Shown piece after piece: positions 1-18,387 of a stretch of DNA of 64,000 nucleotides. Below the pieces are notes generated by a model, which worked only from the letters and a program-made list of their open reading frames with translations, was not told the origin of the DNA and did not search any database. The DNA is from Escherichia coli (GTDB lineage Bacteria > Pseudomonadota > Gammaproteobacteria > Enterobacterales > Enterobacteriaceae), in NCBI RefSeq assembly GCF_003334765.1, contig NZ_QOWT01000022.1; one strand, 5' to 3'. Within the stretch, counting starts at the first letter, position 1. Every line of letters starts with the position of its first letter. Position numbers and translations under genes: made by a program.

Positions 1-1325
1 ATCCCGCCATCTGCGAATCCCTCAATATTTCTTATTGCATCCCCCTGTGAAGATAATAATTGTCGCCCGGCATCCACTCCACGTCCGTCATCCCAGCCAC
101 GAATAAATTCACCGCGTAAATCAGGCAATTTATTTGTCGGATAAACCTTTGCCAGTTCCGGGTATTCTTCAGCAGAAAAAGCCGCACCATTGCATTTTAG
201 CCAGCCTGTTGGCGGAGTGGCGGAAGGCCACGGGACAGGCACACCAACGGGTAATGCCGAACCTTCTCCCAAACCAAGGTATGTGAGAAGACCAGCTACA
301 TCCTTTCCACTCAAATTAGTCAGCGTATTGTCCAGCGGTTGTTTACCTGCCAGCGCATTAAGCATTGTCGTGGCAAAGTTCGGATCATTCCCCAGTGCCG
401 CCGCCAGTTCGTTCAGTGTATCCAGTGCCGCAGGTGCAGAACCCACCATTGCCGCAATCGCCGATTTCACAAAAGCCGTAGTGGCAATCTGTGTATTGTT
501 GACCGACTGCGCCGCCGTGGGGGCTGTTGGCGTTCCGGTGAGTGCCGGATTCGACAGCGGCGCTTTCAGTGCCAGCGCATTGTTAATGGTGGTACTGAAT
601 TTCGGGTCATTGTTAATGGCTGCGGCTATTTCTTTCAGCGTGTCCAGCGTGGCTGGCGCACCATTAATCAGGGCCGTCAGTGCCGCCTGAACAAATGCGG
701 TGGTCGCAAGCTGAGTGGTATTATTCCCCGCCGCTGGCGTTGGCGCTTTGGGGGTTCCGGTAAATGTCGGACTTTCTTTGGGTGCATACTGTGAATGCGG
801 GTCCAGTGCGGCAAGATGTTTTGCTATCAGGTCATCCACGTACACCTTCAGCTCCAGTGCCTTGTCATCCACATACTTGCGGGTTGCCAGCACTACAGCA
901 GGGTCGATTTTCAGGATGATATTGCCCGTACTGCTGGTAATCAGCACCATGCGCACGGTCTGGGTACGCCCACTGCCTTCAGCCAGTTGCGGCTTATAGC
1001 TTTCCGGGCAGTTACCCACGGCAATCAATGCCCCGGACTCATCAAACAAGCCCACTTCACGTATCCACCAACCGCCCTCGTTTTCAGGGATCACCTGTTC
1101 AGCAATAATCTGGCTGCTGTTCTGCGGGTCGATATAGAGCATATTCAGCGCAGCCCGGCGTTTCTCATTTACCAGTGCTGTCTGCTTTGCGTCCGGCGTT
1201 GGTAATGTTCCGCCGCCATCGCCGACCGCCATATGGGTAATTTTTAAAGGCACACCGAGCGCGGCGGCGCTGGCAAGTTTCGCCGCGCCAATATCCGTCA
1301 GCAGGGTATAAAATTTTGTGCTCAT
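1..1325 (-). CDS. Tail fibre protein (P2 gpH-like), N-terminal part only; 3' end lies beyond the window edge
   Basis: Hand translation of minus strand from ATG at 1325-1323 gives MSTKFYTLLTDIGAAKLA... with the conserved P2-type tail-fibre N-terminal domain; frame stays open to position 1; start overlaps gpI stop as ATGA; not in the ORF track because no stop lies inside the window. Confidence 0.8.
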   Translation of the reverse strand, partial: MSTKFYTLLTDIGAAKLASAAALGVPLKITHMAVGDGGGTLPTPDAKQTALVNEKRRAALNMLYIDPQNSSQIIAEQVIPENEGGWWIREVGLFDESGALIAVGNCPESYKPQLAEGSGRTQTVRMVLITSSTGNIILKIDPAVVLATRKYVDDKALELKVYVDDLIAKHLAALDPHSQYAPKESPTFTGTPKAPTPAAGNNTTQLATTAFVQAALTALINGAPATLDTLKEIAAAINNDPKFSTTINNALALKAPLSNPALTGTPTAPTAAQSVNNTQIATTAFVKSAIAAMVGSAPAALDTLNELAAALGNDPNFATTMLNALAGKQPLDNTLTNLSGKDVAGLLTYLGLGEGSALPVGVPVPWPSATPPTGWLKCNGAAFSAEEYPELAKVYPTNKLPDLRGEFIRGWDDGRGVDAGRQLLSSQGDAIRNIEGFADGG

Positions 1326-1927
1326 GGATTCACTCTCATTGTGTCAATAACATGGACCGCCCCGCCTTCATGCGCGGTGCCGCCGGAAATAATTGTTTCG
1401 TTGATATACGGATAGATCGTGATTTCTTCGCCAAGATAACTGGCGGCTCCCACCCAATGCGGGCCGCTGGTCTGCAGATTGATGGACATGCCGATCATGT
1501 GACGGCTACATGGTTTGGCATCGCTTATCAGTCGCTCAAGTTCCAGATAGGTATCTTCAGTGATGCCCTGATCCTGCACGCCGATATCCAGGCGAAACGT
1601 GCCTGGTGTTTCTCCGGTCTGCCACCACTCAATAATGCGGATCAGAAAGCCGAACGGCTCCACCACCCGCCGCACGGCACTGGTGGTTCCTTTATGCTGA
1701 TGAATATAAAAAGCATCCTTCACCACCTGGCGTTTGACACTTTCCGTCCAGTCCTCGTCCCAGCGATCCACAGAGAACGCCCAGGCGAGATAAGGCAGGA
1801 AACTGACCGGACAGGTCGTTGGATTCCACAAGTCACGCAGCGGCACCTGCAAATCAGAAATCCCGCTGCAGGTTTGCGCCAGTCGGCGCTCCAGTGAAGT
1901 TGAACCCGGTGGCAGCAGACTATTCAT
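1322..1927 (-). CDS. Baseplate assembly protein (P2 gpI-like)
   Basis: 201-aa ORF; position between J and H; ATGA-type overlaps with neighbours. Confidence 0.75.
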   Translation of the reverse strand: MNSLLPPGSTSLERRLAQTCSGISDLQVPLRDLWNPTTCPVSFLPYLAWAFSVDRWDEDWTESVKRQVVKDAFYIHQHKGTTSAVRRVVEPFGFLIRIIEWWQTGETPGTFRLDIGVQDQGITEDTYLELERLISDAKPCSRHMIGMSINLQTSGPHWVGAASYLGEEITIYPYINETIISGGTAHEGGAVHVIDTMRVNP

Positions 1928-2828
1928 CCGTTCCTCCGTTGGTTACGCTCCACTGCGTACATGATGCCGCCTGTGTTTTGTTCAGGACCACATCCGCCAG
2001 CGGCGAAGCCAGCTCCACACGCTGCACACCCTCAACATGCAGGGCGGCAAAGATGGCGCTACGGCGAATATCCCGGCCAAGACGCGTCTGACTGGCGATG
2101 TACTTCTGCAGACTGGCTTTTGCCGCTGCCATTACCGGCTCTGCTTCCGGTCCCGGATAGAGAAAAATGGTGGCTTCCACGCGGTACGGGATGATTTCTG
2201 CGCTGCGAACCGTCAGACGGTCAGCCACCGGGCGGACGTTCTCACTGTTCAGGGCTTTCTCCACCACATCCAGCAAGTCTTTTTCTGCTGTTCCATCGCC
2301 TTCGCGGCTAAGGACAGTCAGCACCACCTCTGCAGGTGCCGGACTGGTTGCACTGGCATCCGCCACCCGACCGTCGGCGCTTCGGGCATGAAATTCATAA
2401 GCTGCAGTTGGCCCCGCAACTGAAAGCCCTTCAAAGGCTGCAGGCACACGCAGGCGTAACGCTTCATCGCTTTCCATCACAGCTGCAACGGGCGGCACAG
2501 CGTCATCATCAGCAGGCGTCACCGTCAGGCGTTTCACGTTGTAGTTGGCAGCGAGCTGGTCAAGATCGCCGCCCATCGCATAAGCCACCATCACCGCCTG
2601 CGCGGCTTCGTTAATGCGCTGGCGCAGAAGCAACTCACGGTAAGCGTTCTCCTGCAACAATTTGGTGACGGGTTCAGATTCCAGTTCCAGCGTGCGGATC
2701 ACTGCTTCCTGCTCATCTTTCGGATGAAGCGCCACAAATTCTGCCTTGCGTTCGGCAAGCAGCGTCTCAAAGTCCGGCACATCCACAATCTGCGGCGCAG
2801 GCAACTGCGAAAGGTCAATCACTGCCAT
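1920..2828 (-). CDS. Baseplate assembly protein (P2 gpJ-like)
   Basis: ORF 1920-2867; start chosen at internal Met (MAVIDLSQLP...) giving 302 aa, the P2 gpJ size as recalled; position in W-J-I order. Confidence 0.75.
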   Translation of the reverse strand: MAVIDLSQLPAPQIVDVPDFETLLAERKAEFVALHPKDEQEAVIRTLELESEPVTKLLQENAYRELLLRQRINEAAQAVMVAYAMGGDLDQLAANYNVKRLTVTPADDDAVPPVAAVMESDEALRLRVPAAFEGLSVAGPTAAYEFHARSADGRVADASATSPAPAEVVLTVLSREGDGTAEKDLLDVVEKALNSENVRPVADRLTVRSAEIIPYRVEATIFLYPGPEAEPVMAAAKASLQKYIASQTRLGRDIRRSAIFAALHVEGVQRVELASPLADVVLNKTQAASCTQWSVTNGGTDE

Positions 2829-3174
2829 TCTCTGCTCCTGTTGATACGGAAAGGGAAACAGGCACACCGTTATTACGCCGCCCGGTCAGCTCCACCACCA
2901 TTGAACCGTCAAAATCGCTGTTGATGGTGATGGAATCCAGCGTCAGCCGTGGCTCCCAGCGACTCAGCGCCACATACACTGCCGACATGACCTGCAGGCG
3001 TAATGCCGGATTTTGTGGCTGGTCTATCAGTGCCGACAGCAGAGAACCATATTCCCGACGGGCAATACGGCTACCCTGCGGTGTCAGCAGAATGTCCCGC
3101 ACCGACTGGCGCAGATGGTCAATATCAGTAATGGCTTTGCCGCTGGTATTGTTCATCCCGCTATAAAGCGTCAT
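2815..3174 (-). CDS. Baseplate assembly protein (P2 gpW-like, GPW/gp25 family)
   Basis: 119-aa ORF; start overlaps gpV stop as ATGA; position between V and J. Confidence 0.75.
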   Translation of the reverse strand: MTLYSGMNNTSGKAITDIDHLRQSVRDILLTPQGSRIARREYGSLLSALIDQPQNPALRLQVMSAVYVALSRWEPRLTLDSITINSDFDGSMVVELTGRRNNGVPVSLSVSTGAENGSD

Positions 3175-3749
3175 ACCGGACCTCCGGTTGTGTCGCCGCC
3201 TTTCAGGACGCCAGTATGCTGATGCGCATCAACCACAATCCCGTTAGAGCTCATCGCTCCACCGCCCTGGGTAACGCCACCATTGATCACCACTTCGCTG
3301 TTAATACGCGTGCGGTCAGCCTCCAGCATAAACTCACTGGTTTTCAGGGTGATATTGTCAGCGGCCTCAATGACCATTGATTTGATGCCCCTGACATACC
3401 AGCGCCCGGTGGCGGGTTCGTATTCAAACCAGCCGCCGTCAGGATGTTCTGTCACGCAGGCGTCCGCCGACGTCGAAGGTGGCGCGAACTGATTCGAATA
3501 GATGGCGGGTAACGCAAAGGCGGTTTCCAGATTGCCGCCCAGACTCAGCAGCACCACCTGCTCACCTTCCGATGGTCGCCACCATGTGCGGGCATTACCC
3601 GCGCGCAGCGTCAGCCAGTTAATCCAGTTGGTTTCAAGGTCGCCCGTTTTCACCCGACAAAGCCAGTTTTCCCGGTCCACTTCGGTGACTACACCTATGC
3701 GGATCAGATTGGTGATAAGGCGCATGATTTCGGTTAGTTGTGCGTTCAT
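3171..3749 (-). CDS. Baseplate spike/assembly protein (P2 gpV-like)
   Basis: ORF 3171-3992; phage-like sequence begins at internal Met (MNAQLTEIMRLITNL...) at 3749; the upstream in-frame part is AT-rich insert DNA and unlikely to be coding. Confidence 0.7.
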   Translation of the reverse strand: MNAQLTEIMRLITNLIRIGVVTEVDRENWLCRVKTGDLETNWINWLTLRAGNARTWWRPSEGEQVVLLSLGGNLETAFALPAIYSNQFAPPSTSADACVTEHPDGGWFEYEPATGRWYVRGIKSMVIEAADNITLKTSEFMLEADRTRINSEVVINGGVTQGGGAMSSNGIVVDAHQHTGVLKGGDTTGGPV

Positions 3750-3852
3750 AGATATATGATGACAGCTGAAAACTTGTTTATAACTTCTTGCAAATTGTGG
3801 TATCGATGGTACAAATTGATAAAAGGATAAAAAACAACCAATAGGTGGATAA

Positions 3853-4659
3853 ATGAGTGTTATGAATCCAATAAGTTCTAATATATTTAATGCTGAATTT
3901 TTAAACACCCCGGCAGCGGCACTTGCCGCATGGATTTCCATTATTGGAGCTGTTATAACTTTGGTGACGATAGTTATAAGAGCACTATTCAAATATAGAA
4001 AATCTCATGATGTAATTTTGAAAAAATCAGGAATACCTGCGTTTATATTGAATTTTTTTCTTATACGAATATCATTAAAAAGGCTGCCTACTATCACATG
4101 GGCTGAAAAATCAATCACGGTTCTCTTTTCACTTCTTTTTTTGTGTGCAATTTATATTTTTGGTCCAGTTTTCATCCAAGCCATTAGAACCCCACCAAAT
4201 AGCACATTGCTTTATTGGATAAAATCCGGTGAATCATTTTATATGTCAAAAAAACTGGCGACTGCAGCTACAATATTAACCACTCCTGATTGGGAAATAT
4301 CAAAGGATGATTGCGAAGAGTCATCCTCTGCCAGTACAGAGAAGTACAAATCATTAACTATCGAACATAAAGAAATTCTTTGTAAACTACTAACCACTGA
4401 TGAAGGGAATGCTTACATTGATGAAGAAGTCAAGAATTTCGTTAAAGACAAATTCTTTATCTATTCCTTTGCCCCAACAACCATATTTATTCTATTATGG
4501 ATTTCTTTGGGTTTTATACTGACCATTCACTATTCTAAAAAAGTTAGGAAATATATTCTGACTGAACAAAAAAATGCAATTCATTGGGCATATGGTGAAT
4601 TCAAGACAGAAGGAATCTATTCAATATATCAAGAGTTAGAACGTAAGACTCACCATTAA
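3853..4659 (+). CDS. Hypothetical polytopic membrane protein (moron inserted between tail genes S and V)
   Basis: 268-aa ORF, strongly AT-rich unlike flanking tail genes; several hydrophobic segments (e.g. AALAAWISIIGAVITLVTIVI, ITVLFSLLFLCAIYIFGPVF, TTIFILLWISLGFILTI); no recognisable domain. Confidence 0.6.
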   Translation: MSVMNPISSNIFNAEFLNTPAAALAAWISIIGAVITLVTIVIRALFKYRKSHDVILKKSGIPAFILNFFLIRISLKRLPTITWAEKSITVLFSLLFLCAIYIFGPVFIQAIRTPPNSTLLYWIKSGESFYMSKKLATAATILTTPDWEISKDDCEESSSASTEKYKSLTIEHKEILCKLLTTDEGNAYIDEEVKNFVKDKFFIYSFAPTTIFILLWISLGFILTIHYSKKVRKYILTEQKNAIHWAYGEFKTEGIYSIYQELERKTHH

Positions 4660-5047
4660 GACCCAACAAACGACGCTCTGCGTAACGCACTTCCGGTCCT
4701 TTGCGGCTGACGCGATCGCGCAGGCCATAATGGTGAACGCGGGCAATGCGCTGCACCTTACCTTCAAACTGCACGCTGGCAGAATCGGCGCTGGCGGCAG
4801 TTTTCAGGTATTTGGTGGTGCGCAGCTTTGCAAACATCTGACGTTTGATGCGGCCTTTTTTACTGCGCGCCGTGACCTTGCGCGGTTCATAACTGCTGCC
4901 ATCTGGATTGCGCTGCATCCTGATATTCTGCTGCTGTGTCCGGCGCAGTTCCTGCGCCAGCTGGCGCATCATGCGGCTTCTTGCGACTGGTTCCAGATTC
5001 GCCAGTAAGGCACTAAGCCAGTCGTCCACCTTCTGCAGTTCAGCCAC
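4601..5047 (-). CDS. Tail completion / virion morphogenesis protein (P2 gpS-like); last ~19 codons encoded by AT-rich insert DNA
   Basis: 148-aa ORF with basic gpS-like sequence; position next to R; 3' end 4601-4659 overlaps the convergent moron ORF. Confidence 0.7.
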   Translation of the reverse strand: MAELQKVDDWLSALLANLEPVARSRMMRQLAQELRRTQQQNIRMQRNPDGSSYEPRKVTARSKKGRIKRQMFAKLRTTKYLKTAASADSASVQFEGKVQRIARVHHYGLRDRVSRKGPEVRYAERRLLGLNGESYVLTLDILNRFLLS

Positions 5048-5498
5048 GTTTCACCGTCCACATTTCTTCAGGTTCATCGGGTTCTGCTACCGCTTCAACG
5101 CTCGACACACTGCCGTCAGTGCTGACCAGCACACGTTCCGTCAGTTGCAGGTTAAGGCTGATATCACAGACATCGTTGCGCAGAATATCCACCTCAAAGG
5201 TAAATAGTTTTTCCCGTAACGCCGGGTTATTGATGGCATCGGGCTGGTTATCCCGCAGCCACAGCAAAACCGGGGCCATCAGCAGATTCTGGTCGCCGCT
5301 GAAATCCTCAATCACCACGTTCAGGGTGTAACCACGCAGCCCTACGAGTTCACTAAAGGCAGTATCTTTCACCTGATGGAGCCGGACCTGAACCAGGAAA
5401 TTTACGGCCTGCCGGAATATCTGTCCGCCATTCCGTCCGCCTTGCTGAACGAGTCCGCTACGCTGTTCCGGCGTAAATACTACATCAATGGCAGTCAT
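5040..5498 (-). CDS. Tail completion protein (P2 gpR-like); N-terminus possibly not native
   Basis: 152-aa ORF; C-terminal ~100 aa look gpR-like (YTLNVVIEDFSGD...LTERVLVS); N-terminal ~40 codons are antisense to the portal fragment. Confidence 0.65.
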   Translation of the reverse strand: MTAIDVVFTPEQRSGLVQQGGRNGGQIFRQAVNFLVQVRLHQVKDTAFSELVGLRGYTLNVVIEDFSGDQNLLMAPVLLWLRDNQPDAINNPALREKLFTFEVDILRNDVCDISLNLQLTERVLVSTDGSVSSVEAVAEPDEPEEMWTVKRG

Positions 5499-5906
5499 GC
5501 AGGGTTCATCATGTATATGACCGACGCCGCGCAGAACCAGGAGGACGTGAACAACATCCGCCAGGCCATGAAAAGCGCTAAAGGACCGGGCAACTTCCGC
5601 AACCTGTTTATGTATTCACCCAACGGCAAAAAGGACGGGATTCAGATAATCCCGCTGTCAGAGGTAGCGGCAAAGGATGAGTTTCTGAACATTAAGAACG
5701 TGAGCCGAGACGACATGATGGCTGCACACCGCGTTCCGCCGCAGATGATGGGGATTATGCCGAGTAATGTTGGGGGATTTGGGGATGTGGAAAAGGCGAG
5801 TAAGGTGTTTGTCCGTAACGAATTGATACCGCTGCAAAAGCGAATTAAAGAAATTAATGAATGGTTGAGTGATGAAATAATTTCTTTCCAACCATATGAA
5901 TTATAA
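5376..5906 (+). pseudogene. Portal protein fragment (P2 gpQ-like, C-terminal portion only)
   Basis: 176-aa ORF ending ...NVSRDDMMAAHRVPPQMMGIMP...; portal-like C-terminus, about half the expected length; directly abuts gpR on the opposite strand with no capsid, terminase or lysis genes between. Confidence 0.6.
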
Positions 5907-5907
5907 T

Positions 5908-5934
5908 AAAGTAGGGCAAATAATGCCCTACTTT
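5908..5934. terminator. Bidirectional stem-loop between convergent portal fragment and 285-aa cargo gene
   Basis: Perfect inverted repeat AAAGTAGGGC-(AAATAAT)-GCCCTACTTT flanked by A/T runs. Confidence 0.6.
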
Positions 5935-6785
5935 AACCAAATATTATAATCCAATCTTCCTACGTATCTTGAAAAAACAGCCAGAGCAATTGCTTGCCCT
6001 ACACTTGTTAATTCAATTCCTTGATAGTTGCTCTTTGAAAATTTTTCTAAAAATGCAGACACATGAGGGGCAACTAACTTAAGATTTGAAATATATGCAC
6101 TCTTATCTTTTATATCAGTCGGATATTTACTCATAAAATAGTCTTCAACATCCATCCCTAAAAAAGTATTCCATGAACAAGCCCCTGCATATTGAATGTG
6201 ATATATCTGGGCTTGAGACAAATTAAACCCATTAGTATACATTGATTCAAAGTTTCTAAAATTGTGCTCCAACAAATCCAATCGAACACCATTAACAGGG
6301 TCTTTGATCTCAACATTCTTGAGAAGAAAAACTATCGTTATAAGTGATATTTGTTGCTGTGTTAACTTGGGAACGACGGTAACTGCCTCCGTTAAAACTA
6401 TATCTCTAAAATCGTCATTGTTATTGGAGACTCGTTCAACTAACAACTGAGAAAGCACATCCATATTAGCTTTCTTTCCCTTCCTGGCTGATGACTTTAA
6501 TGCCTCAGTCAATGTAGCCTGAACGTCCGGATCGCAAAATTTATCAATAATCAATCTATCAACGTTTTTTGTTAAATCCGAAACGACACGCTCTTCAAAA
6601 TCTTTTGCATTCTCTTGAGCTGCAGCATAAGCAACATCTTTCAATTTTGGAAACTGATTTTCGAAGAGAATGTTGAATAGTTCTCTAACCTCGGAAAACG
6701 ACATCCCTGAAACATTTACATTATTTCCAGCTTGAATTGCATACGAATTATTACCTATTTGTTGCTTTTGCTTATCACTAAACAT
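5928..6785 (-). CDS. Hypothetical protein, 285 aa (AT-rich cargo, cos-proximal)
   Basis: Long ORF in AT-rich DNA; no domain recognised; N-terminal low-complexity motif IGNNSYAIQAGNNVNV. Confidence 0.65.
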   Translation of the reverse strand: MFSDKQKQQIGNNSYAIQAGNNVNVSGMSFSEVRELFNILFENQFPKLKDVAYAAAQENAKDFEERVVSDLTKNVDRLIIDKFCDPDVQATLTEALKSSARKGKKANMDVLSQLLVERVSNNNDDFRDIVLTEAVTVVPKLTQQQISLITIVFLLKNVEIKDPVNGVRLDLLEHNFRNFESMYTNGFNLSQAQIYHIQYAGACSWNTFLGMDVEDYFMSKYPTDIKDKSAYISNLKLVAPHVSAFLEKFSKSNYQGIELTSVGQAIALAVFSRYVGRLDYNIWLK

Positions 6786-6794
6786 ATATCCTCC

Positions 6795-7040
6795 TTATTT
6801 TTTATCACCTGTATTTATACAATCAATTTTAATATCACCTCTAGCCTGGACAGCAGTTGAATTATCACCAACTGATTGGCTCATAGAATTATATTTATTT
6901 TTTGTAGTGATAAGTAATCCAGCTAAAGCGCTAACTGCAGCCAAAAATGCAACAATAGAATCAAAACCAGGATCCATATAAAGCCATAATCCTGCAATCG
7001 ATGCCAGCATACATGTAATGACTATTGCAAAAATTTTCAT
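6795..7040 (-). CDS. Small membrane protein, 81 aa, two predicted TM helices; co-oriented 9 bp upstream of the 285-aa gene
   Basis: Hydrophobic segments IFAIVITCMLASIAGLWLY and IVAFLAAVSALAGLLIT; C-terminal tail VGDNSTAVQARGDIKI resembles the N-terminus of the downstream protein. Confidence 0.55.
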   Translation of the reverse strand: MKIFAIVITCMLASIAGLWLYMDPGFDSIVAFLAAVSALAGLLITTKNKYNSMSQSVGDNSTAVQARGDIKIDCINTGDKK

Positions 7041-7108
7041 AAATTCTCCTTCTAATGGAAGTGGTTATACCGAAAACAATTTCCTTTTACAACCACGCAC
7101 AGCGCGCG

Positions 7109-7127
7109 CTCGTATCCCCGCCACGCC
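7109..7127 (-). other. cos-like site (P2/186-type cohesive-end sequence)
   Basis: Minus strand reads GGCGTGGCGGGGATACGAG, close to the P2/186 cos overhang as I recall it (GGCG[A/T]GGCGGGGAAAGCA-); sits in a GC-rich island inside AT-rich DNA. Confidence 0.45.
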
Positions 7128-7345
7128 TGCCCGCTTTGTGTAGTGGTTTTCATGCACCTGCATGACATAAGTAAAAGCCCGCCAGAACTGGCGGGACTGA
7201 GCAAAAACGATCCTTTTGCGATCATTCATTTTCATGCGCTATAGTCATGCAACAAACGCATACGAACCATATGGTTAGATTACTCATCAAGTCAGATGGA
7301 TTTTCAGGCAGATTGCCACAGCAATTGTAAAGGAGCGAGATTGAA

Positions 7346-8347
7346 ATGGGTGGAGAGACTTCGGCTATACAACGAGTCGCGGGTAAGATTTCTGATGATA
7401 TTTTCTCAGTGTTCAAATGGGATCGTGCCGCTAGAGCGGACATGAATTGGGATTGTTGCCAAGAGGCTCATTCCAAGAAAACACATCCAAGCGATGTTGT
7501 ATTTTTCTACATAGATCCATATGAGGAGGAAATGGTCTATCTCAACACAGACCTCAAAAGCTATGCAGAAGGTACTATTGGGAAAAAAATAGTCGAGGGA
7601 GCTTTAACATCGCTTGCTTTAGCTACCGAGTGTGCAAATGTCAGTGAAGAATGGCGATTGAAATATGTTCATGATGATTCTTTAGGTTATAACGTAAGAG
7701 GGTTATTATTCTTATATAACCATGATAATTTATATGATAAAGACTTCTATGAGAATATTACAAAAAAATTAGATCACTCATCTATAAATTGCCCTCCAAA
7801 CATCAAACTACATTTGCTTGACCCTTATAAAATATCAGATTTGATAAACATATCTTCTGACATAACTAAGTTAATTGGTTCAGGCAAACTTCCTCAACCT
7901 GATAAGTTCACATATTATTATCCAGATCTTTCCCTAACAAGAATAAAGCACCCTATTAATCAGACAACACCTGCAACAATTGAATTATTAACATCACCAT
8001 ACATTATAATAAAGCATGAGGCTTTCAGTTGGCTCAGGGATAAAAACCCTGAGGGATATGTTGTTTATTACAATCAACCGGGGGATTCAGTAGACGAATT
8101 CGTTTACTTCTTTGATATGTTATCAACTTATCAGATATTAACCGAAGGTAAACCAATCGTATTACGCCATTGTCACATTCACCCAAATGAAAATGCCATT
8201 CATCATTTTGAAAGAGCGAAAAAGAAATACAGCACAGACTGGCTCTTAGGCGAGGATGAAAGACTTTTTCTTAAAATTGACTTCGACAAGACAGACAAAA
8301 TTGTTGTTGAATATAATCTTGAACAAATCGGCATGGAGCAACGATAA
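7346..8347 (+). CDS. Hypothetical protein A, 333 aa (first gene of three-gene cargo operon)
   Basis: ORF with AGGAG-like RBS ~10 nt upstream; AT-rich; stop overlaps next start (TAATG); no Walker A, RT or TIR motif seen. Confidence 0.7.
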   Translation: MGGETSAIQRVAGKISDDIFSVFKWDRAARADMNWDCCQEAHSKKTHPSDVVFFYIDPYEEEMVYLNTDLKSYAEGTIGKKIVEGALTSLALATECANVSEEWRLKYVHDDSLGYNVRGLLFLYNHDNLYDKDFYENITKKLDHSSINCPPNIKLHLLDPYKISDLINISSDITKLIGSGKLPQPDKFTYYYPDLSLTRIKHPINQTTPATIELLTSPYIIIKHEAFSWLRDKNPEGYVVYYNQPGDSVDEFVYFFDMLSTYQILTEGKPIVLRHCHIHPNENAIHHFERAKKKYSTDWLLGEDERLFLKIDFDKTDKIVVEYNLEQIGMEQR

Positions 8348-9426
8348 TGGCTAAAAAACTATATTTCGCAACTGATAAAAATATTTATGATGCATTACAT
8401 CATAAAAGGATAACCGCTGCAAAGTTGCATGAATTATTGTTGAATCGAGGTGTGTTTTTATCACCAGAACTCGACAAGGAAATACTAATCGAGGAAATAT
8501 CCAAACTTCCTCACGGATTTAATGAATTAGAACACATAAAAAAACTGGTCAAAACATATGACCCAAGGGAAAGCACTACTAGTGTGAGCTTCCAAACCTC
8601 AACAAATCAGGCCGAATTAAAAAGTGCTGCTGAAGCACTAAAAAAAACATGCTCCCCTAGTAAAGGTCAAAGCCTGAATATTGTAGCTAAAAAAGATGGC
8701 TCGCTTACAGTAGAATACAAATATGAAGAAATAGACCTGTCTAAAACTGCATTACGTCAGATCGACAAGCGGAATGTTATAATAGAACTTCGCCCTGGAG
8801 CTGACAAAGTTGAAGTACGTATGCCTCAAAACCCCGAGGCAAAAAAAGTTATTGAGAGCTTGCAAAACGAGCTATCTAAAATCAAGTCCGAACCTATCGA
8901 GCGCTTCGAAATATCATTACTAGCAATAACTGATCCTACATTGCGAAGTCAGTTTTTTCAGGAATTAATGAATGGTCTACGCGGTTATGAGACTGATGAC
9001 GTAACAAAAGTCGAATTAAATCGCAGTACTGATGCTAGTGAGGATGAAGACAAGGAAGAAACTATTGATACCGGATTTGTTAAGAAAGCCGTCCTTAATG
9101 GTGAAGGGGTAAATAGTTCAGCTATATTTTCTCAACTACATGAGAAAGGTTATTATATCGGGCGTATTGCATGGTCTTCAAAGCCGACAAGTGGAATTGG
9201 AGACAGAATCAACGTCGAAGCATTTTTCAAAGACTCAGAAAAATGCTGTGACTTTGCCTATCAAATTAAAGGTATAAACAATCAAAAAGAAGACGGTTTC
9301 AATGTAACCATTCGCGCGGCAACGGCACAAGAGAAAAAACATATTAGTGAATTAATTGAGTCCGCCGCTGAAAATGCCTATAATATAATAATAGGATCAG
9401 AGGTGAACGAAGATGAAAAAGGTTAA
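8347..9426 (+). CDS. Hypothetical protein B, 359 aa (second gene of three-gene cargo operon)
   Basis: ORF coupled to gene A by a 1-nt overlap and to gene C by a 14-nt overlap; acidic stretch DASEDEDKEE; no recognisable domain. Confidence 0.7.
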   Translation: MAKKLYFATDKNIYDALHHKRITAAKLHELLLNRGVFLSPELDKEILIEEISKLPHGFNELEHIKKLVKTYDPRESTTSVSFQTSTNQAELKSAAEALKKTCSPSKGQSLNIVAKKDGSLTVEYKYEEIDLSKTALRQIDKRNVIIELRPGADKVEVRMPQNPEAKKVIESLQNELSKIKSEPIERFEISLLAITDPTLRSQFFQELMNGLRGYETDDVTKVELNRSTDASEDEDKEETIDTGFVKKAVLNGEGVNSSAIFSQLHEKGYYIGRIAWSSKPTSGIGDRINVEAFFKDSEKCCDFAYQIKGINNQKEDGFNVTIRAATAQEKKHISELIESAAENAYNIIIGSEVNEDEKG

Positions 9427-10096
9427 ATGGCTTAAGTTAAACATACGGCTTGAGTTTGAAACAGCCGTTAGACGTCTTTCTCTTGATTCTTTTACAGAGG
9501 ATAAAGGGAAAGGGTTCATTTTTGATAAAATACGCCATGATTTTGCAAATGGTCGCTTTGTCGAGCGTATTGTTTATCATGATAAAATATTAAGCTTTGA
9601 CGGAAGCGAAACTACCGTTGAAAGAATCGAATATCGCACCACAAATTTTAGCGTGGCTTTAGACTCTCTTCCTGTAATGCAGATTACTAACCCACCCAGA
9701 ACTTTAAAGCCTTTTTCGCAGGCTTTGGTAAAAAATCTTGGCTTAGGTGTTAGTTTGGAAGAAATTGACATAAACCCTATAGACTGGCTTAATGAAATAT
9801 CTTCAAGTGTAAATATCAATTTAACACAACTTGATATTTCAAGGGTTAGAGTTTCTGATTACGCCACAGCTAAAATGCAAATAATTGGCAGCAATGATCT
9901 TAGGAAGTATTATAAAGAAGAATTAGAGGGTAAAAAAATAAGAATTGACAGGCTTGTTTGCTCTGTTAATTCATTAGAATATTCCGGTAAGCTCAAGATC
10001 ACCAATAGCGGCCTTGCTTATATTGATGTTAGAAATGAGAATGAGTTTACGAAAATCGTTTTTGATACGTTAAAAAAAGTCACCCTTCAATCATAG
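9413..10096 (+). CDS. Hypothetical protein C, 227 aa (third gene of three-gene cargo operon)
   Basis: ORF starting inside the end of gene B; followed by a strong hairpin; no recognisable domain. Confidence 0.65.
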   Translation: MKKVKWLKLNIRLEFETAVRRLSLDSFTEDKGKGFIFDKIRHDFANGRFVERIVYHDKILSFDGSETTVERIEYRTTNFSVALDSLPVMQITNPPRTLKPFSQALVKNLGLGVSLEEIDINPIDWLNEISSSVNINLTQLDISRVRVSDYATAKMQIIGSNDLRKYYKEELEGKKIRIDRLVCSVNSLEYSGKLKITNSGLAYIDVRNENEFTKIVFDTLKKVTLQS

Positions 10097-10152
10097 ATGG
10101 CTTATAAGGAGTTACTTCACCTAACGCCTCGCCTTACTCGTTGTTCAACCTC

Positions 10153-10183
10153 GTAGGCGTCAGAATCAAGTTCTGACGCCTAC
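10153..10183. terminator. Bidirectional stem-loop between cargo operon and DinI-like gene
   Basis: 13-bp perfect inverted repeat GTAGGCGTCAGAA-(TCAAG)-TTCTGACGCCTAC. Confidence 0.6.
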
Positions 10184-10191
10184 AATGTTTC

Positions 10192-10425
10192 TTAATGCAG
10201 CCAGCTATCGTCCTCCCAGACCTGCTGCATTATTTCCATCACTCGCTTTTTGTCTTCATCCAGTTTTAACCCGCTCAGCTCAACGCCATTGGCGCTGCCC
10301 TTACGGATACGAATTGCTGTTTTGGGATACAGAGGGCGCAAATTACGGTAAAGCTCGGATTCAAGGGCGTCCAGGGTAGACTGGCTAATCTTCTGCTCTT
10401 TATCGATCATTATTTCAATGCGCAT
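10192..10425 (-). CDS. DinI-like protein
   Basis: ORF 10192-10497; internal Met begins MRIEIMIDKEQ..., 77 aa, alignable by eye to E. coli DinI (MRIEVTIAK...WESADDW); downstream of a LexA box. Confidence 0.7.
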   Translation of the reverse strand: MRIEIMIDKEQKISQSTLDALESELYRNLRPLYPKTAIRIRKGSANGVELSGLKLDEDKKRVMEIMQQVWEDDSWLH

Positions 10426-10435
10426 AAAAGCCACC

Positions 10436-10624
10436 TCAGCTGATGACATCCATTGAGCGGTTGTATTCGTGGGTTCTGATTTTTGCCATGAGTTCATCTG
10501 TCAGTTCAGAAACCCACTGCAGAGCCAGCCCCTTCTCTTCATCACTACACTCACTAGCCGCTACAAGCTTAAGAAAAAAATCAATGCGCTGGAGCTTCAA
10601 AGACTCCAAAAAATAGTCCTGCAT
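10436..10624 (-). CDS. Small protein, 62 aa, first gene after the LexA box (possible Tum-like antirepressor)
   Basis: ORF ~40 bp downstream of the LexA box; position corresponds to the SOS-controlled tum module of 186-like phages; functional call is by position only. Confidence 0.35.
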   Translation of the reverse strand: MQDYFLESLKLQRIDFFLKLVAASECSDEEKGLALQWVSELTDELMAKIRTHEYNRSMDVIS

Positions 10625-10664
10625 CTTTCCTCCTATGACACCAAAGCAACACTGTATACATAAC

Positions 10665-10683
10665 CACTGTTTGTATTTACAGT
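10665..10683. promoter_or_regulatory. LexA operator (SOS box) upstream of the tum-like/DinI-like module
   Basis: ACTGTTTGTATTTACAGTA fits CTG-N10-CAG; AT-rich promoter-like context. Confidence 0.7.
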
Positions 10684-10775
10684 ATATAATAATATTACTG
10701 ATGTAAAACGTTTTTTACGTTCATCAGCCTGATATGCCTGGTATTATTAAGAGCACGAATTGTTAACCTGCGTAA

Positions 10776-13190
10776 TTAATACAGGTTCCGCCACTTATCA
10801 TCTTCCTGCAAACGCTGGTTCCGATAGAAGATACGCAGGCCTGCTCCTGACGGAATACTGCCACCACGTAGGAGTAAATCGACCTCTTTCTCGCTGCCAT
10901 CAAATCCTCTGGACTTCAGCTCATAGACGAGCTGCTGTCGCTGATGATCTGTAATTCGCTGTTTGTAGTCTTTACGCCGTTTCAGCTTAACTAGGCGTAA
11001 CCTCGCTGCCAGTTCCCGGCGCTCTTTTTTGCTCATACTGTGCAGGTAATCGTGCAATTCCTTGTCATCCATGCGGGTAATGTCCGTTCTGGTGTCCCCA
11101 TCAGCTGATTTATCTTTATCCTGTTGGTTCAAATTTTCAGCAAGGGGACAGTTATTGCCACGAGTCCAAGGGGCGCAAGCGCCCTGGTCGGCTGCCGCCT
11201 CCTGAACGTCAACGGCTTTACGAACCATTTTCCACTTCACTGCATGAGTGCAGATCTTGCCCTCTGCAATGGGTGACCAGATGCCATAAATACGAATGCC
11301 GTGATCGCCATAGGCGGTCGGCTCTTCGTTGATTTCATAAGCGGTTCTGATGAGGTGATATTTACGGGGAACCAGTACGCCGCCCTGCTTCATGATGTAG
11401 GTGGCAAAACAACCAGCATCAGCAGCAGCCAGAATGGCATCAAGACGCGGGTTATCCAGTACCGGCGCACCTGCTTTTTTGTCACCCTGTTGCCTTGCCG
11501 CCTGACCAGCCAGCAAGCGAAGTTCACGGTAAGCCTGACGCCCCGGAATACCAAAGAAGCGGAATTGCTGAACACGATGCAGAGACGCCCAGGCATTAAC
11601 GTATTCAGCGTTATCACGCAGGGATTTACCCGTTTCCTTGCTGATCTCGCCAGCCAGACCACGCCCGTCAATGTTCTTACTGATGTATTTCGCGATGTAG
11701 CTTGTTGGCGTACCTTTGCGCGGGTTTATCAGCTCAGACTTAAAGCGTGGCCCCGTGTTATTGCCCAGCTCCTCGCGGTCTTCACGGATGGCAAACTTAC
11801 GCAACAATGCAGTAATGGCGCGGCGGTCTTTTTTGCGCATGAAACACAACAGGTGCCAGTGAACTGTGCCGTCATGATGCGGTTCAGCCACCCGCACGCC
11901 ATACCAGCGCAACCCGGCTTTGTGCATAGCCTTACGAAATGCAGCAAACATGCCGACCAGATAATCGCTGCTTTGTCTTACCGTCGCGTTTGTCCAGGTC
12001 GGGTTTGGTCTGCCGTTATTGAGCGTGGAATGGAAACGCGACGGACAGGTGATAGTGTAGAAAACGGCACAGTCACTGCGCATTTCTGCGATAAGCTCCA
12101 GACCTTTAACACAGGCCATCATCTCATTGCGGCGATGCGCCGGGTTGCTGCTGCTGGCGTTTACCACATCCTCCATGTCCAGCGTGTCGCCGTCTTCGTT
12201 CACCAGTTCATGAGAACGGAAAAACTCCAGCGACTTACGGCGCTGCTCACGTTTATGCATCACGGCTTCATAGCTGACATAGGGAGATGCTTTTTTGCTG
12301 ACCAGGCAAACAGCACGCAACTGCTCTTCCCGCCATTCGCAACGCATCTTCCATAATTTCCGGTACCACCAATCGGCGCACAACATACGCGCCAGCGAAC
12401 CCGGAATGAGTTCATAGGGCACGGGTTTACGGCGGTTTCTTTTCCGACGAAGTTGCTCAAACGCAGGCGGGATAACATCCAGTCGCAGGGTTTCTGCTGC
12501 CACCTTTTCCCATGTCTTGCGGATTTCTTCTGGCTTAACATCATCGGTGGCGTACAAATCACCACAAGCGGCATCAAGACACATGCTCATATGCGCAGCG
12601 ACAAGAGTAGACAGGCGTTTCACCTGATCCTGACTCATTTCAGGCAGAATCAGCAGGCCGTCCAGCCCTACATGGCTTGCCATAAAACGAAAAGATGCAG
12701 ATAGCTGGCTGTCGCGTACATGCTCCAGTCGCTCCAAACATGGCTTAATCGTCTCACGCAAATAGCGGGAATAAGCCTTTGGCCTGCCCAGGCTGCTGAA
12801 GTATTCAATACGTTGCATCAGCGGCTTGCTGATATGGGAAGGCTGGGCATTGACGTCCGCCAGAATGACCATATCTGGATTAAAACGCTGCTGCTCATGC
12901 GCCAGCTTTGCCCGACTAATGAGCTTATCCTGCTCCATTTCGCGCTGGACAGGATCACGGGATTCATTAAAGAAATAACGCTCCCAGACCTGATCACTCA
13001 GTGCCTCGCGGCGCAGGTGTTCCTGTTCGTTATCGGCAGCGTACAGAGCGATCAGGTTTGAAAGCGCAGAAACCGGCGCAACTTCCGCCGGGTCCAGATA
13101 AGGGTTAATGGCCTTTTTCGGGCTGTTCCATGAGAACGCTGCGGCAGCCTCGTTAAAGCCGCAGCAGTTGTTCATATCGGCATGGCTCAT
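10776..13190 (-). CDS. Replication initiation protein A (P2/186 gpA-like rolling-circle replicase)
   Basis: 804-aa ORF, the size and position of P2-family gene A; start overlaps Dam stop. Confidence 0.75.
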
Positions 13191-14044
13191 GCACGTACTC
13201 CGTACACGGCAGAACTATCCACGCCACGCGAATAATCAAATCCCACCCAGCAGCGCGGCCCGGAAACAGCAATGATTTCTGTTGCTGATTTACCCTCGCC
13301 AGCTGCCACACCGATGCTGCGTTTTACCTTGATATAGTGGTGAGTAAAATTGCGATACAGCGAACGGATCAGGGATGTATCACTGTTAGAAACAATGACC
13401 GGATGTCCTTCTGATGACCGATGTTCAAGAACGGATGCCAGGTGATACTGGTCATCTTCAGTGAAACCATCAGTGTGATAGCCGGAAAACGTACCGTCAT
13501 ACGGCGGATCGCAATACACCACATCCCCCGCCTTCAACATCGCCAGCGTTTCATCAAAGCTGGCGCAGATAAACGTTGCTCGCTGGGCTTTTTCTGCAAA
13601 TGCGCGAATTTCTTTTTCAGGGAAATACGGATTTTTATAATTACCGTAGGGAATGTTGAAATGCCCGCTCTTGTTATAGCGACATAAACCACGGTAACCG
13701 TGACGATTGAGATACAGGAAATATACCGCTTTCATGAAATCAGTAATTTCAGTTGAGTAATTAAACTCCTGCCTTATGTTGTAATAAGCCCCCCCCCTGT
13801 TTGCGATCTCAAATAAAACTCTGGCGCGAGATATAAACGATTCACAATCAGCAGCAACCTTTTTATAGAGGTTGATTAAATCAGGATTAATATCCGCAAC
13901 AAGATAGCTGGGGTACTCCGTCTCCATCATCACTGCACAGGAACCCGCGAAAGGTTCAACCAGTCGCGGGCCAGCAGGAAGATGCTTTTTCAGTTCGGAC
14001 ATAATGGCGGTTTTATTTCCCGCCCATTTCAGGATGGTGCTCAT
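13187..14044 (-). CDS. DNA adenine methyltransferase (Dam-like, D12 class)
   Basis: ORF 13187-14104; start chosen at internal Met ([11 protein letters not shown]...); motifs EPFAGSCAV and DPPY typical of Dam-type N6-adenine methyltransferases. Confidence 0.85.
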
Positions 14045-14268
14045 ACAGCACCTCCGTTGTAATGTTTGCCTTTCAGCTCTGCGATTTCCTGACAGGTAAT
14101 GCAAAGCTGCACACCCGGAATGGCACGGCGGCGTGCTGGCGGAATTGGCGCTTCACACTCAATGCAAAGCACGCGGGACACGCCCGGCGTTTTGGCACGG
14201 GCAGCACGGATATGACGCTGGCGTTCTTCTTCAACGCGCTGCTGTACGAGATCCATTGCATCAGCCAT
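14041..14268 (-). CDS. TraR/DksA-family C4 zinc-finger protein
   Basis: 75 aa with CIEC...CITC cysteine pairs. Confidence 0.7.
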   Translation of the reverse strand: MADAMDLVQQRVEEERQRHIRAARAKTPGVSRVLCIECEAPIPPARRRAIPGVQLCITCQEIAELKGKHYNGGAV

Positions 14269-14507
14269 TAGTGGATCTCCTGCGCTTCGTTCTGGATTGC
14301 TTCAGCTGCCACACGCAGCAGTTCAGCCGCTTCAACGTGGTTTAGCTGGCGGGATGTGATATGGCACGCAAGGCTATCAAGGCGAGCTGCCATTGCTTCA
14401 GCTCTTGCCCGACGTTCTTCCAGACGAGCCTCTGTCAGTAAAATATTAAGTCCTGCGTCATCCGGTCCGGTTTTAGTCGAGAGGGTTTCAATATTACGCA
14501 TAATCAA
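14268..14507 (-). CDS. Hypothetical phage early-region protein, 79 aa
   Basis: ORF packed in the early operon between the TraR-like gene and upstream genes. Confidence 0.5.
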   Translation of the reverse strand: MIMRNIETLSTKTGPDDAGLNILLTEARLEERRARAEAMAARLDSLACHITSRQLNHVEAAELLRVAAEAIQNEAQEIH

Positions 14508-14568
14508 TTCTCCTGAATTTAGATAAAGGAATGCCCGGCGGGTTTACGCCATGAATTTCATTAATTGG

Positions 14569-14910
14569 TTAATTCGGCATGGCTAGCCGTCTGGGAAATA
14601 AGCTCACCACTGCACGAAGATGATTCATTACTTTAATCAACTCCCGCTTTTCGTCAGTGGTCAGCTCATTAATGCTGATGCTATGACGTTCAGCTGGAAT
14701 TTTTGCTATAAAGAATATAGCAGCCAGTGCTCGTTTATTTCGTTCATAATTAATATCCCGTGGATCACGCATATCTTTAATAAACCGCTCAAGCTCTGAC
14801 TCAATATTCAGGCCAAAAACTTTCGCCCTTAACTCTGCAATGTGATTAAGTCCATTCAGGCGTTCACCGGGGCTTAATGGAACAGTTGCTGCAGCGCCAT
14901 TAATTGCCAT
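14569..14910 (-). CDS. Hypothetical phage early-region protein, 113 aa
   Basis: ORF in early operon; no recognisable domain. Confidence 0.5.
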   Translation of the reverse strand: MAINGAAATVPLSPGERLNGLNHIAELRAKVFGLNIESELERFIKDMRDPRDINYERNKRALAAIFFIAKIPAERHSISINELTTDEKRELIKVMNHLRAVVSLFPRRLAMPN

Positions 14911-15027
14911 ACTTCATATCCCCCAAACGCAGCTATCGTTCTTTGTTCTTACGGTAACGCTCAAGAGGAGATACATTTTTTCGTATCGTCTCTTTAACCT
15001 GCTCTCCCCGTAAAAACGTCCCATCCT

Positions 15028-15324
15028 TTAACGTGAAAAAGTAACTGCCATCGCCCGACAATGACGGATAGCAACAGAGCAAATCATCTTCAGGTACTGA
15101 ATAACTCTCCCCTCTGTAACGAAACTGATAAACCACTTCACTTTCTGCCGCATACATTTGGACTTTCTCCGTTTCCTCGTGGTCAATTCAGACAGCAATT
15201 CATCTTGTGAATGACATGGATGCCAGCGTTTTCCATCCTCACCCGTGATCCAGCCGTGACCGTAGTGCATTGCCGGGCTTTGTTTTACCAGCAGCGATGC
15301 AAATGATGGTTCTTTCGTCAGCAT
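15028..15324 (-). CDS. Hypothetical early protein immediately downstream of cII (candidate Fil/Dhr-like); boundaries uncertain
   Basis: ORF 15028-15354 with start placed at internal Met (MLTKEPSF...); overlaps a second out-of-frame ORF 14933-15157, so only one is likely real. Confidence 0.35.
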   Translation of the reverse strand: MLTKEPSFASLLVKQSPAMHYGHGWITGEDGKRWHPCHSQDELLSELTTRKRRKSKCMRQKVKWFISFVTEGRVIQYLKMICSVAIRHCRAMAVTFSR

Positions 15325-15331
15325 AAGCACC

Positions 15332-15841
15332 TCACAGCAAACCGAATGAAGCACCGAGGCCAGTCACGGTATCAACTGCACTCGCCATCGCAGGATTAGC
15401 CTGTAAACGGGCCTGCAATGAAACAGCAGCCAGCGCCATCAGTCGTGTTACAGAGTTAATGCTGCTGATAGCATCACGACGACCGGCACTAGTTTTTACA
15501 TCACCAGATACCGCACCTGCTGCAACACGCCCGATCTCTGCAGTTGCGCTCATGACGTAATGCGGCAGTTTCTCTTTTGCTACCTCATTAATCGGTACAC
15601 ATGGCAGACAATGAATCTGTGCCAGAAAACCATCTACCAACGTTGAATCTTCAGTCAGATCGGTAAGCAGCCAGATTTCTGGTGCGGTTAATAAATGAGG
15701 TTGAGCTGGGTTCAGCTTGTTCCGCAGAATCTGCACATTCATGCCCGCACGTTCTGCCAGTTGCACCAGATTGTGGCGCAGTGCGAATGCACGACAGGCT
15801 TCATCAAAATGTGGATGTTTGGAAACTTGGTAATCAAACAT
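15332..15841 (-). CDS. cII: Phage regulatory protein CII (186-type, CP76 family)
   Basis: ORF 15332-15850; start at [19 protein letters not shown]... gives 169 aa; sequence matches what I recall of 186 CII. Confidence 0.75.
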
Positions 15842-15905
15842 GGTTTTCAACTCCGAACTTATCGCAAAATCGAACTCAGCGTCTTATTGCGAAAATAGAC
15901 GTCTA

Positions 15906-16109
15906 TTAAGCAGACAAAGCATCAACAGTCAGAGCAGCCAGGTTAATCATTACCTTTTCACGTTTTTTGTCTTTACGAAGACGATGACGAGGTAGTCGGC
16001 CATCAGCCAACATGTCGTTAATCGTATCAATAGAAAGGCCAGTCAGTTCGCTATAACGTTCGATTGTGACATGTGGTGTATTCAGAGTAATTGAAATGTT
16101 AGGTGTCAT
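15906..16109 (-). CDS. Apl/Cox-like excisionase and transcriptional regulator
   Basis: 67-aa ORF divergent from the repressor gene, first gene of the early operon. Confidence 0.6.
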
Positions 16110-16254
16110 AAGGCAACATTCCTTCTAGATATGGCTTGTGGCGAGCCGTTGTTTGTCGTGATTAGTAGTGAAGGCTCCAAAAGAACACTTCTGGTTCAAC
16201 TTTAAGATCGCTTTTGGAATCTGTCAACGAATTTTGGATTTCTTTGGAGGACTT
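16110..16254. promoter_or_regulatory. Lysis-lysogeny switch region between apl and cI
   Basis: Intergenic region between divergently oriented apl-like and CI-like genes; operators and promoters expected by analogy with 186 but not mapped. Confidence 0.5.
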
Positions 16255-16824
16255 GTGGATTTCAATAGCGGCGGTAAGAAAGCCATAGAACGTTTAGTTG
16301 AAGCATATGGGTTCGGTACCCGTCAGGCTCTATGTGATCATTTAGGTGTTTCTAAGAGCACCATGGCAACGCGCTATATGCGTGATATTTTTCCAGCAGA
16401 TTGGGTAATCCAGTGCGCCCTTGAAACGGGCACCTCGCTTAATTGGCTAACAACAGGGCATGGTTCAAAGCAAGCATCAGCAAATACAAATACTATAGAA
16501 GTAGAAAAATATTTATTGTCTGATGGAGCATTGCAGAAAGACGGTTTTTATATTTTTGATAAGGGATTTCTACCCTCTACGTTTAAAAAACCTTTTGTCA
16601 TCACAGATAACAATTCTGAATTTATTTGTGATAAAGAATTTGATGATATACGTGATGGTAAATGGGTAATAAGTATTGATGGCGAAATAACGATCCGTGA
16701 CATTACTCGTTTACCCGGTGGAAGAATCTTCGTCGAGGGTGGAAACAGAGCCTTCGAATGCAAGATAGAAGACATTGAAATAATTGGTAAAATTATAAGT
16801 TTAACAGTCAAGTATGTTAAATAG
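16255..16824 (+). CDS. cI: Immunity repressor (186 CI-type)
   Basis: ORF 16168-16824; start placed at GTG 16255 preceded by GGAGGA; product ...ERLVEAYGF...QCALETGTSLNWLTTG... fits the 186 CI N-terminal HTH region; length ~189 aa. Confidence 0.7.
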   Translation: MDFNSGGKKAIERLVEAYGFGTRQALCDHLGVSKSTMATRYMRDIFPADWVIQCALETGTSLNWLTTGHGSKQASANTNTIEVEKYLLSDGALQKDGFYIFDKGFLPSTFKKPFVITDNNSEFICDKEFDDIRDGKWVISIDGEITIRDITRLPGGRIFVEGGNRAFECKIEDIEIIGKIISLTVKYVK

Positions 16825-16839
16825 TACCGGGAGGAAACT

Positions 16840-17031
16840 ATGCTTGGTAAGGTATTTTTTGTGGTTTTGTCATGTTCTTTGTTATTAAACCCACTAACTA
16901 CCTATGCTAGAAATTATCCCTGCTCAGGGAAAAAGGGAGGTGTTTCTCACTGTACCTCAGATGGCAAATTCGTTTGCAATGATGGAACTATTAGTAAATC
17001 CAAAAAAATCTGTACTAAAAACTCACGATAA
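16840..17031 (+). CDS. Small cysteine-rich secreted peptide, 63 aa, between cI and int
   Basis: N-terminal hydrophobic signal-like segment [23 protein letters not shown] followed by ~40 residues with four Cys; AT-rich. Confidence 0.45.
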
Positions 17032-17219
17032 CTTTTGCTTTTATATCTGCGTCTAAAATAAAAATGAGCCGCAGGTTAACCGCAAAAGTTACATGCTCAC
17101 ATAGCAAAAAGAATAGCCAACTTAATTATGGCTTCAGTGAGATGTATGGTCGTAGGATTTCATACATTGACACTGGTTATACATACAGTGAAAATGCTCT
17201 CTACTGGAGGGCATTTTTT

Positions 17220-18296: not shown

Positions 18297-18301
18297 CCAC
18301 C

Positions 18302-18339
18302 AACCTAACTTATTGTTTTTAATCTAACTTATTGTTTTC
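18302..18339. repeat. Tandem 19-bp direct repeat just downstream of int (candidate att or arm-site region)
   Basis: AACCTAACTTATTGTTTTT followed by AATCTAACTTATTGTTTTC, 17/19 identical. Confidence 0.5.
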
Positions 18340-18387
18340 ATTAACCCGTTTACATAAATGGGTTTTTTGTTATCTAAAACTTATCTA

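Follow-up and report, generated by a model that had tools for sequence, protein, structure and literature searches.

A probable single deletion from portal gene Q to tail gene R in a cryptic P2/186-family prophage of Escherichia coli

In phage P2, the genes from the portal gene to tail gene S follow the order Q-P-O-N-M-L-X-Y-K-lysA-lysB-lysC-R-S. In the stretch of DNA analysed here, 64,000 nucleotides of an Escherichia coli contig (NZ_QOWT01000022.1 of assembly GCF_003334765.1; hereafter the window), an open reading frame (ORF) resembling the C-terminal part of Q lies on the plus strand directly beside, and partly over, a minus-strand ORF resembling R. The question raised by this locus is whether everything between the two genes is truly gone, by what event it was lost, and what kind of element has been left behind. 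The original prediction took the arrangement for a portal fragment fused directly to R, with the capsid, terminase and lysis modules deleted, and suggested that the element had been domesticated for its cargo genes or kept as a tailocin-like tail remnant, or both. Our analysis indicates that the window very probably carries a defective (cryptic) prophage of the P2/186 family (Peduoviridae), from which one illegitimate deletion of about 7.4 kb, running from Q to R between imperfect 8-base repeats, has removed the genes in between. The features on which this reading is based are collected in Table 1.

The element and its relatives at the ybjL-rcdA site

The prophage is located in the ybjL-rcdA interval of the E. 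coli chromosome, and the chromosome around it is that of an ordinary E. coli, 11.7 kb of it being 100% identical to many genomes. Related phages often occupy this rcdA-ybjL site, which is also the insertion site of the intact prophages of E47 (NZ_CP121151) and CUVET17-972 (NZ_CP115370), the latter a same-family prophage of about 35 kb. An element of the type found on contig L006, measured with the candidate 14-bp att core, has a length of about 23.6 kb, while about 35 kb is expected of an intact one.

Membership of the P2/186 family is indicated by a gene order collinear with that of P2 and by the presence of tail, early and regulatory homologues. The order common to the window and to P2/186-type phages is ogr-D-U-T-E-FII-FI ... 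H-I-J-W-V-(orf30 slot)-S-R ... Q-cos-hotspot-tum-A ... cII-apl-cI-int, and both order and orientation are those of E47, CUVET17-972, P2 and 186. The deletion apart, the window matches annotated P2-like prophages end to end at 88-99.9% nucleotide identity. The Q, R and S proteins of both P2 and 186 align to the window by tblastn, and proteins identical to its products carry the Pfam matches Phage_GPA, Phage_CP76, Tail_P2_I, Baseplate_J, GPW_gp25, Phage_base_V, Phage_tail_S and P2_Phage_GpR. The element is not a functional phage: Q and R are truncated, and the complete set of portal, terminase, scaffold, capsid, head-completion and lysis genes is not present.

Table 1. Features of the prophage in window coordinates; lengths of V, W, J, I and H are those of gene calls on contig L006 (one difference from the window in 15,906 bases)
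Feature	Position	Strand	Remarks
H (tail fibre)	runs off the left edge of the window	-	504 aa called on L006
I	1322-1927	-	full length, 201 aa
J	1920-2828	-	full length, 302 aa
W	2815-3174	-	full length, 119 aa
V	3171-3749	-	full length, 192 aa
TGT-N12-ACA motif upstream of V	3796-3813	-	motif match only
DUF6216 membrane protein gene (cargo)	3853-4659	+	P2 orf30 position, between S and V
S (tail completion / virion morphogenesis)	4601-5047	-	full length, 148 aa; tblastn, PF05069
R' remnant	5040-5332	-	R codons 48-143 and stop; PF06891
Deletion junction	5325-5332		8-base imperfect direct repeat, one copy kept; overlap of two alignments
Chimeric 5' extension of the R' ORF	5333-5498	-	antisense of the portal fragment, not R
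Q' remnant	5333-5906	+	portal residues ~153-343 of 343; PF04860 and tblastn
Hairpin, 12-bp stem	5907-5935		between the stops of Q' and the Vpar_1526 gene; position of P2 tQ / 186 tW
Cargo hotspot	5928-10096		between the portal gene and tum
Vpar_1526/LPO_1073 gene	5928-6785	-	
81-aa membrane ORF	6795-7040	-	
cos-like site GGCGTGGCGGGGATACGAG	7109-7127	-	186 alignment
Hp1	7346-8347	+	333 aa
Hp2	8347-9426	+	359 aa
Hp3	9413-10096	+	227 aa
DinI-family (tum-like) gene	10192-10425	-	
62-aa ORF	10436-10624	-	
LexA-box-like site CTGTTTGTATTTACAG (CTGT-N8-ACAG)	10667-10682		upstream of the 62-aa ORF and the tum-like gene
Retained early region	10776-18371		
A (replication)	10776-13190	-	
cI		+	
int	ends 18296	+	
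Candidate att core ATGGGTTTTTTGTT	18358-18371		adjoins rcdA

The deletion junction and the fragments beside it

The junction emerges from two collinear BLAST matches to the prophage of H3 (NZ_CP028732, locus L001), in which window 1-5332 corresponds to L001 5603-10935 at 99.94% and window 5325-14910 to L001 16001-25586 at 98.6%, the two blocks overlapping by 8 bases at 5325-5332. As the H3 prophage bears a different deletion of its own, the E47 prophage (locus L004) was taken as the intact reference. Window 4650-5332 corresponds to L004 3884-4566 and window 5325-14910 to L004 12001-21586 at 98.6%, and the part missing from the window is L004 4567-12008, that is 7,442 bp reaching from R codon 47 to Q codon ~152. 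The left arm has its nearest match in H3, and for the right arm H3 and E47 are about equally close; because the true parent is not at hand, the length of the microhomology, 4 to 8 bases, and that of the deletion are both estimates.

At the join the window reads GGTGTAAC, which is identical to the R side and agrees with the Q side (GGTCTAAC) at 7/8 bases. The first of these repeat copies, GGTGTAAC, lies in R codons 46-48 and the second, GGTCTAAC, in Q codons 151-153; compared base by base, the R-side parent agrees with the window through GGTGTAAC and then diverges, and the Q-side parent agrees from GGTCTAAC on. Alignment of the P2 and 186 proteins places the breakpoints at R codon 47/48 and at about Q codon 150. 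The single internal Q-to-R deletion that had been predicted thus holds: it fits the P2 gene order, and the alignment of Q and R locates its junction. A deletion between 8-base repeats that leaves one copy is the classic sign of illegitimate, microhomology-mediated recombination, and we infer such a mechanism here; it may have been RecA-independent slippage or microhomology-mediated end joining. An inversion or other rearrangement was considered and rejected, since both arms are oriented as in the intact prophages and no displaced genes are seen.

According to the annotation of E47, the deleted interval holds R codons 1-47, lysC, lysB, the lysA-like gene, the lysozyme (endolysin) and holin genes, tail gene X, head-completion gene L, the small terminase subunit gene M, the major capsid gene N, the scaffold gene O, the large terminase subunit gene P and codons 1-150 of portal gene Q. 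In the 64-kb window, tblastn gave no match for E47 lysC, lysB, lysA-like, K, Y, X, L, M, N, O and P, nor for P2 P, O, N, M, L, X, Y, K, lysA and lysB. The whole element from ybjL to rcdA is spanned by the window and related contigs taken together, and in those contigs, which cover the rest of it, tblastn found no head, terminase or lysis homologues. The earlier claim that the element can neither make capsids nor lyse the cell is therefore sound, and capsid or terminase genes moved to another part of the prophage were not found anywhere from ybjL to rcdA.

The deletion also bears on transcription. On the annotated map of P2, the divergent late promoters pP and pO and their shared activator site all lie between P and O, and R and S end the O operon. 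The O-P intergenic region, where the divergent late promoters are located in P2 and 186, falls within the lost interval, so that R'-S and Q' would be promoterless if the phage was organised like P2.

On the right of the junction, the plus-strand ORF ending at 5906 is indeed the C-terminal part of a P2-family portal protein, as had been proposed. The fragment Q' shares 99.5% identity with residues 151-343 of the E47 portal, a protein of 343 aa (tblastn E 6.5e-130), and 64% with P2 gpQ 151-339 and 186 W 147-336. Its N-terminal 150-152 codons, the 5' 44% of the gene, are gone, and a full-length portal of the P2 gpQ type (about 340 aa) is no longer encoded; the description of Q as roughly half length is apt, about 56% of the full length being kept. 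No start codon occurs in frame before the ATG at 5376 (M168), from which an ORF of 176 aa (5376-5906) is read, and a protein identical to its product matches Pfam PF04860 (Phage_portal).

On the left, the reading of 5040-5498 as a gpR gene stands for 5040-5332 and fails for 5333-5498, where the minus strand is antisense to the portal gene and the ORF is chimeric. R' aligns with P2 R 48-123, 186 N 48-135 and E47 R 48-143, and the 5' third of R, its first 47 codons, is deleted. Of the 152 residues of the ORF only the C-terminal 96 come from R; the antisense portal stretch stays open by chance up to the ATG at 5498, and the first 56 residues that it contributes are unrelated to R and stand in for R residues 1-47. 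The native N-terminus of gpR has accordingly not been kept. An alignment of R residues 2-47 to this extension was rejected, being a gapped, low-identity tblastn extension off a strong C-terminal core. The apparent overlap of the two genes, 123 bases between ORFs 5376-5906 and 5040-5498, is not a real one and comes from the extension of the ORF across the join. A full-length P2 gpR of 143-155 aa, with its native N-terminus and expressed from the O operon, is not found here.

Next to R', gene S matches residues 1-146 of E47 S at 88% (tblastn) and also matches P2 S and 186 O; it is without the upstream region that in P2 holds the operon promoter pO. In a simple consensus scan, which is a weak test, no sigma-70-like promoter suited to Q' or R' was detected, and no promoter-like site was seen on the minus strand upstream of the chimeric ORF. 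The terminator-like hairpin beyond the stop of Q' would block read-through from the cargo gene into R'-S. From the consensus scan and the P2 operon map, Q' and R'-S are probably transcriptionally silent pseudogene remnants. Q' or R' as expressed new small proteins were rejected on the same weak test, no promoter being placed for them and the hairpin separating them from the cargo gene.

Retained regions and further decay

The TGT-N12-ACA motif upstream of V is of the same kind as the annotated activator site of P2 pV, and the V-W-J-I-H operon keeps in it a candidate late promoter. The DUF6216 gene between S and V is present in the window and not in E47, while the Vpar_1526 and Hp1-3 cargo is common to both. 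The DUF6216 gene and S overlap at their 3' ends, over 59 bases. The orf30 slot has no gene in E47 and, in CUVET17-972, an AAA-family ATPase gene in place of the DUF6216 gene; it looks like a second variable cargo site.

In the main hotspot, Hp1, Hp2 and Hp3 give full-length PADLOC matches (E 1e-239 to 2e-157), and proteins identical to their products match Pfam PDDEXK_GAPS4 and GAPS4b_N; on these matches they are a known three-gene anti-phage system in the P2 hotspot adjoining cos. A defence hotspot of P2 beside cos, in the gpA-gpQ interval, has already been described (bioRxiv 10.1101/2021.01.21.427644). The cos-like site was found by reading the intergenic sequence and aligning to it the circularised ends of 186 (GGGCA|GGCGTGGCGGGGA), which together with the flanks agree at 78% over 65 nt (E 1e-11). 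The P2 cos sequence gave no match with up to 3 mismatches, and a looser cos pattern matched P2 alone among the fetched loci. The site lies inside the cargo hotspot and does not adjoin the portal gene as it does in P2 and 186; as the Vpar_1526/LPO_1073 gene and the 81-aa ORF come between it and the portal stop, there is cargo on both sides of cos. Two side observations concern the same segment. In an otherwise intact relative (L005, NZ_LT883142, 12620-14731), the IS5-family element ISKpn26 replaces most of the Vpar_1526 gene and a 5' part of the Hp genes, which is a loss of cargo and not of structural genes. Within the complete-genome set, two records of about 55 kb from human E. coli (H28 and H29; NZ_CP148585 and NZ_CP148400) carry the same portal-plus-cargo segment at 99.9%.

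Besides A, cI and int, the early region holds a dam-type methylase gene, a TraR/DksA-family gene, DUF2732, DUF5347, fil, cII and an apl-like gene. The layout of the LexA-box-like site and the tum-like gene matches the annotated p95/LexA/tum position of 186, and by this placement the defective element may still respond to the SOS signal. The immunity and replication (A) genes, the LexA-box/tum-like operon and the cargo genes are retained, as the original prediction had it, all as full-length ORFs, and so is the integrase gene. The element should still be able to maintain immunity, and on SOS induction it would probably still be derepressed, excise and replicate. Assembly of heads, completion of tails, DNA packaging and cell lysis would all be beyond it.

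Copies nearly identical to the window have lost two to three more pieces of the tail genes, in a nested series. Contigs L006, L008 and L009 (99.98-100% identical to the window) lack 3.4 kb, from the N-terminal half of T through E and the tube gene FII and across most of the sheath gene FI, as well as 0.9 kb with the start of the sheath gene, an invertase gene and the start of a gp53-like gene beside it; in L007 a further 5.6 kb is gone, from the remnant of T into V. These extra deletions lie to the left of the window (L006 1-4626, L007 5583-7898, L009 16253-20459). The Q-R deletion would then be one step in an ongoing, stepwise deletional decay. The H3 prophage occupies the same site, carries the same cargo and is also defective through an internal deletion, but a different one, in which lysC is joined to a truncated M (L001 11037-11730) and Q, P, O, N and R are intact; the H3 and window elements decayed independently. 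In the H3 prophage, the tape-measure gene T is also truncated and the fibre genes are frameshifted.

Alternative readings and significance

It might be asked whether the junction exists at all, because a join of R' and Q' could be a chimeric contig join or a collapsed repeat. Looked for in 5,426 complete RefSeq E. coli genomes, it occurs in none, every match there ending at 5325 or 5332; the allele is known only from draft, GenBank-only and metagenome assemblies. Such an assembly artefact is nevertheless practically inconceivable. An identical 61-nt junction is found in 12/12 contigs fetched from different samples (ENA metagenomes and Logan SRA assemblies), which are independent assemblies from different pipelines and studies; these contigs, which include two with lengths of 110 and 168 kb, agree with the window at 99.97-100% along as much as 15.9 kb, and over about 15 kb the junction copies show 0-4 differing bases. 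The exact 176-aa portal fragment, named by NCBI "phage portal protein [Escherichia coli]", occurs on 67 contigs, the longest of 4.9 Mb, and the chimeric 152-aa product on 29, and an 8-base repeat is too short for an assembly collapse. With the deletion taken as real, the tailocin-like remnant of the original prediction is to be weighed, in which the kept tail genes would still yield contractile tail particles that serve the host as a bacteriocin. R-type pyocins and P2-derived tailocins derive from a P2-like tail module without head genes, the V, W, J, I, H and S ORFs are intact in the window, and the motif upstream of V persists. Tailocins, however, keep the full sheath, tube and tape measure, R/S-type completion proteins, a lysis cassette and a regulator, and the element does not. 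Here R is without its 47 N-terminal codons, X is deleted, R'-S appear promoterless, and the element has no lysis cassette of its own, the holin, endolysin and spanin genes having lain in the deleted interval and having no homologue in the window. Nor is the tail set complete, as judged for its left part from L006, L008 and L009 because the window ends inside H: near-identical contigs are without E, the tube gene and the greater part of the sheath gene and keep only half of T, and one of them (L007) has lost everything from T to V. The tailocin proposal therefore finds no footing, and tail particles from this element are extremely improbable.

Two further readings grant that the prophage is defective and give its cargo a role. 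Domestication of defective prophages is a theme reportedly treated by Bobay, Touchon and Rocha in 2014; applied here, it would mean that the deletion was selected to disarm an SOS-inducible prophage, while immunity and the defence cargo (the Hp1-3/GAPS4-type system, Vpar_1526 and DUF6216) stay under purifying selection. In its favour, every cargo gene has its full length, as have cI, int, A and the tum-like operon; four separate deletions have each struck morphogenesis genes; and the allele has spread widely, being recorded on 67 contigs. Defective P2-like elements whose defence genes are nearly identical to those of intact phages have moreover been reported, with domestication left open (bioRxiv 10.64898/2026.02.27.708500); in them, as here, morphogenesis genes are lost or pseudogenised and the hotspot beside cos is intact, and the window element differs from them in nothing of kind, being one specific allele with its breakpoints mapped. 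On the other side, copies that are 99.97-100% identical have had too little time for neutral decay to show; the cargo may still be there simply because the deletion is recent; most of the genome consists of morphogenesis genes, where deletions will often fall by chance; and recent clonal spread of the host accounts equally well for the prevalence and for the retention of the cargo. We regard domestication as conceivable but rather doubtful. Still less can be said for a helper-dependent element, which we hold to be quite unlikely. By this proposal, the remnant of about 23.6 kb, with its cos, int/apl for integration and excision, A with its origin and tum-like inducer, would upon induction have its DNA packaged by a hetero-immune P2-like helper, either co-resident or superinfecting, with satellite-like spread of the defence cargo. 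The element keeps the cos-like site with its 186-like flanks and intact int, cI, cII, A and LexA-box/tum-like operon, and the phages that so often sit at the rcdA-ybjL site are potential helpers; the satellite-type features (cos-like site, int, A and cI) are simply what is left of a phage. All junction copies are seen at one chromosomal site and are about 99.99% identical, as fits vertical descent rather than transfer, and evidence of horizontal spread was not found. Nothing like P4 Sid or Psu is encoded, the annotated or called genes of the element including no helper-remodelling gene (Sid, Psu, Delta, Eps); 23.6 kb would underfill a head of P2 size; and the element's own cI would repress homo-immune helpers.

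We thus return to a cryptic prophage with a single Q-R deletion, an element of a known kind and a case of ordinary prophage decay. Its significance beyond annotation is little. ORFs 5040-5498 and 5376-5906 are to be annotated as the pseudogene fragments R' and Q', not as genes; the prophage is ruled out as a source of virions or tail particles; and the defence cargo beside cos sits in an immobile, at best helper-dependent, element. Together with the H3 prophage, the nested deletions show that P2-like prophages at ybjL-rcdA decay fast with their defence hotspots intact, a pattern already present in the literature.
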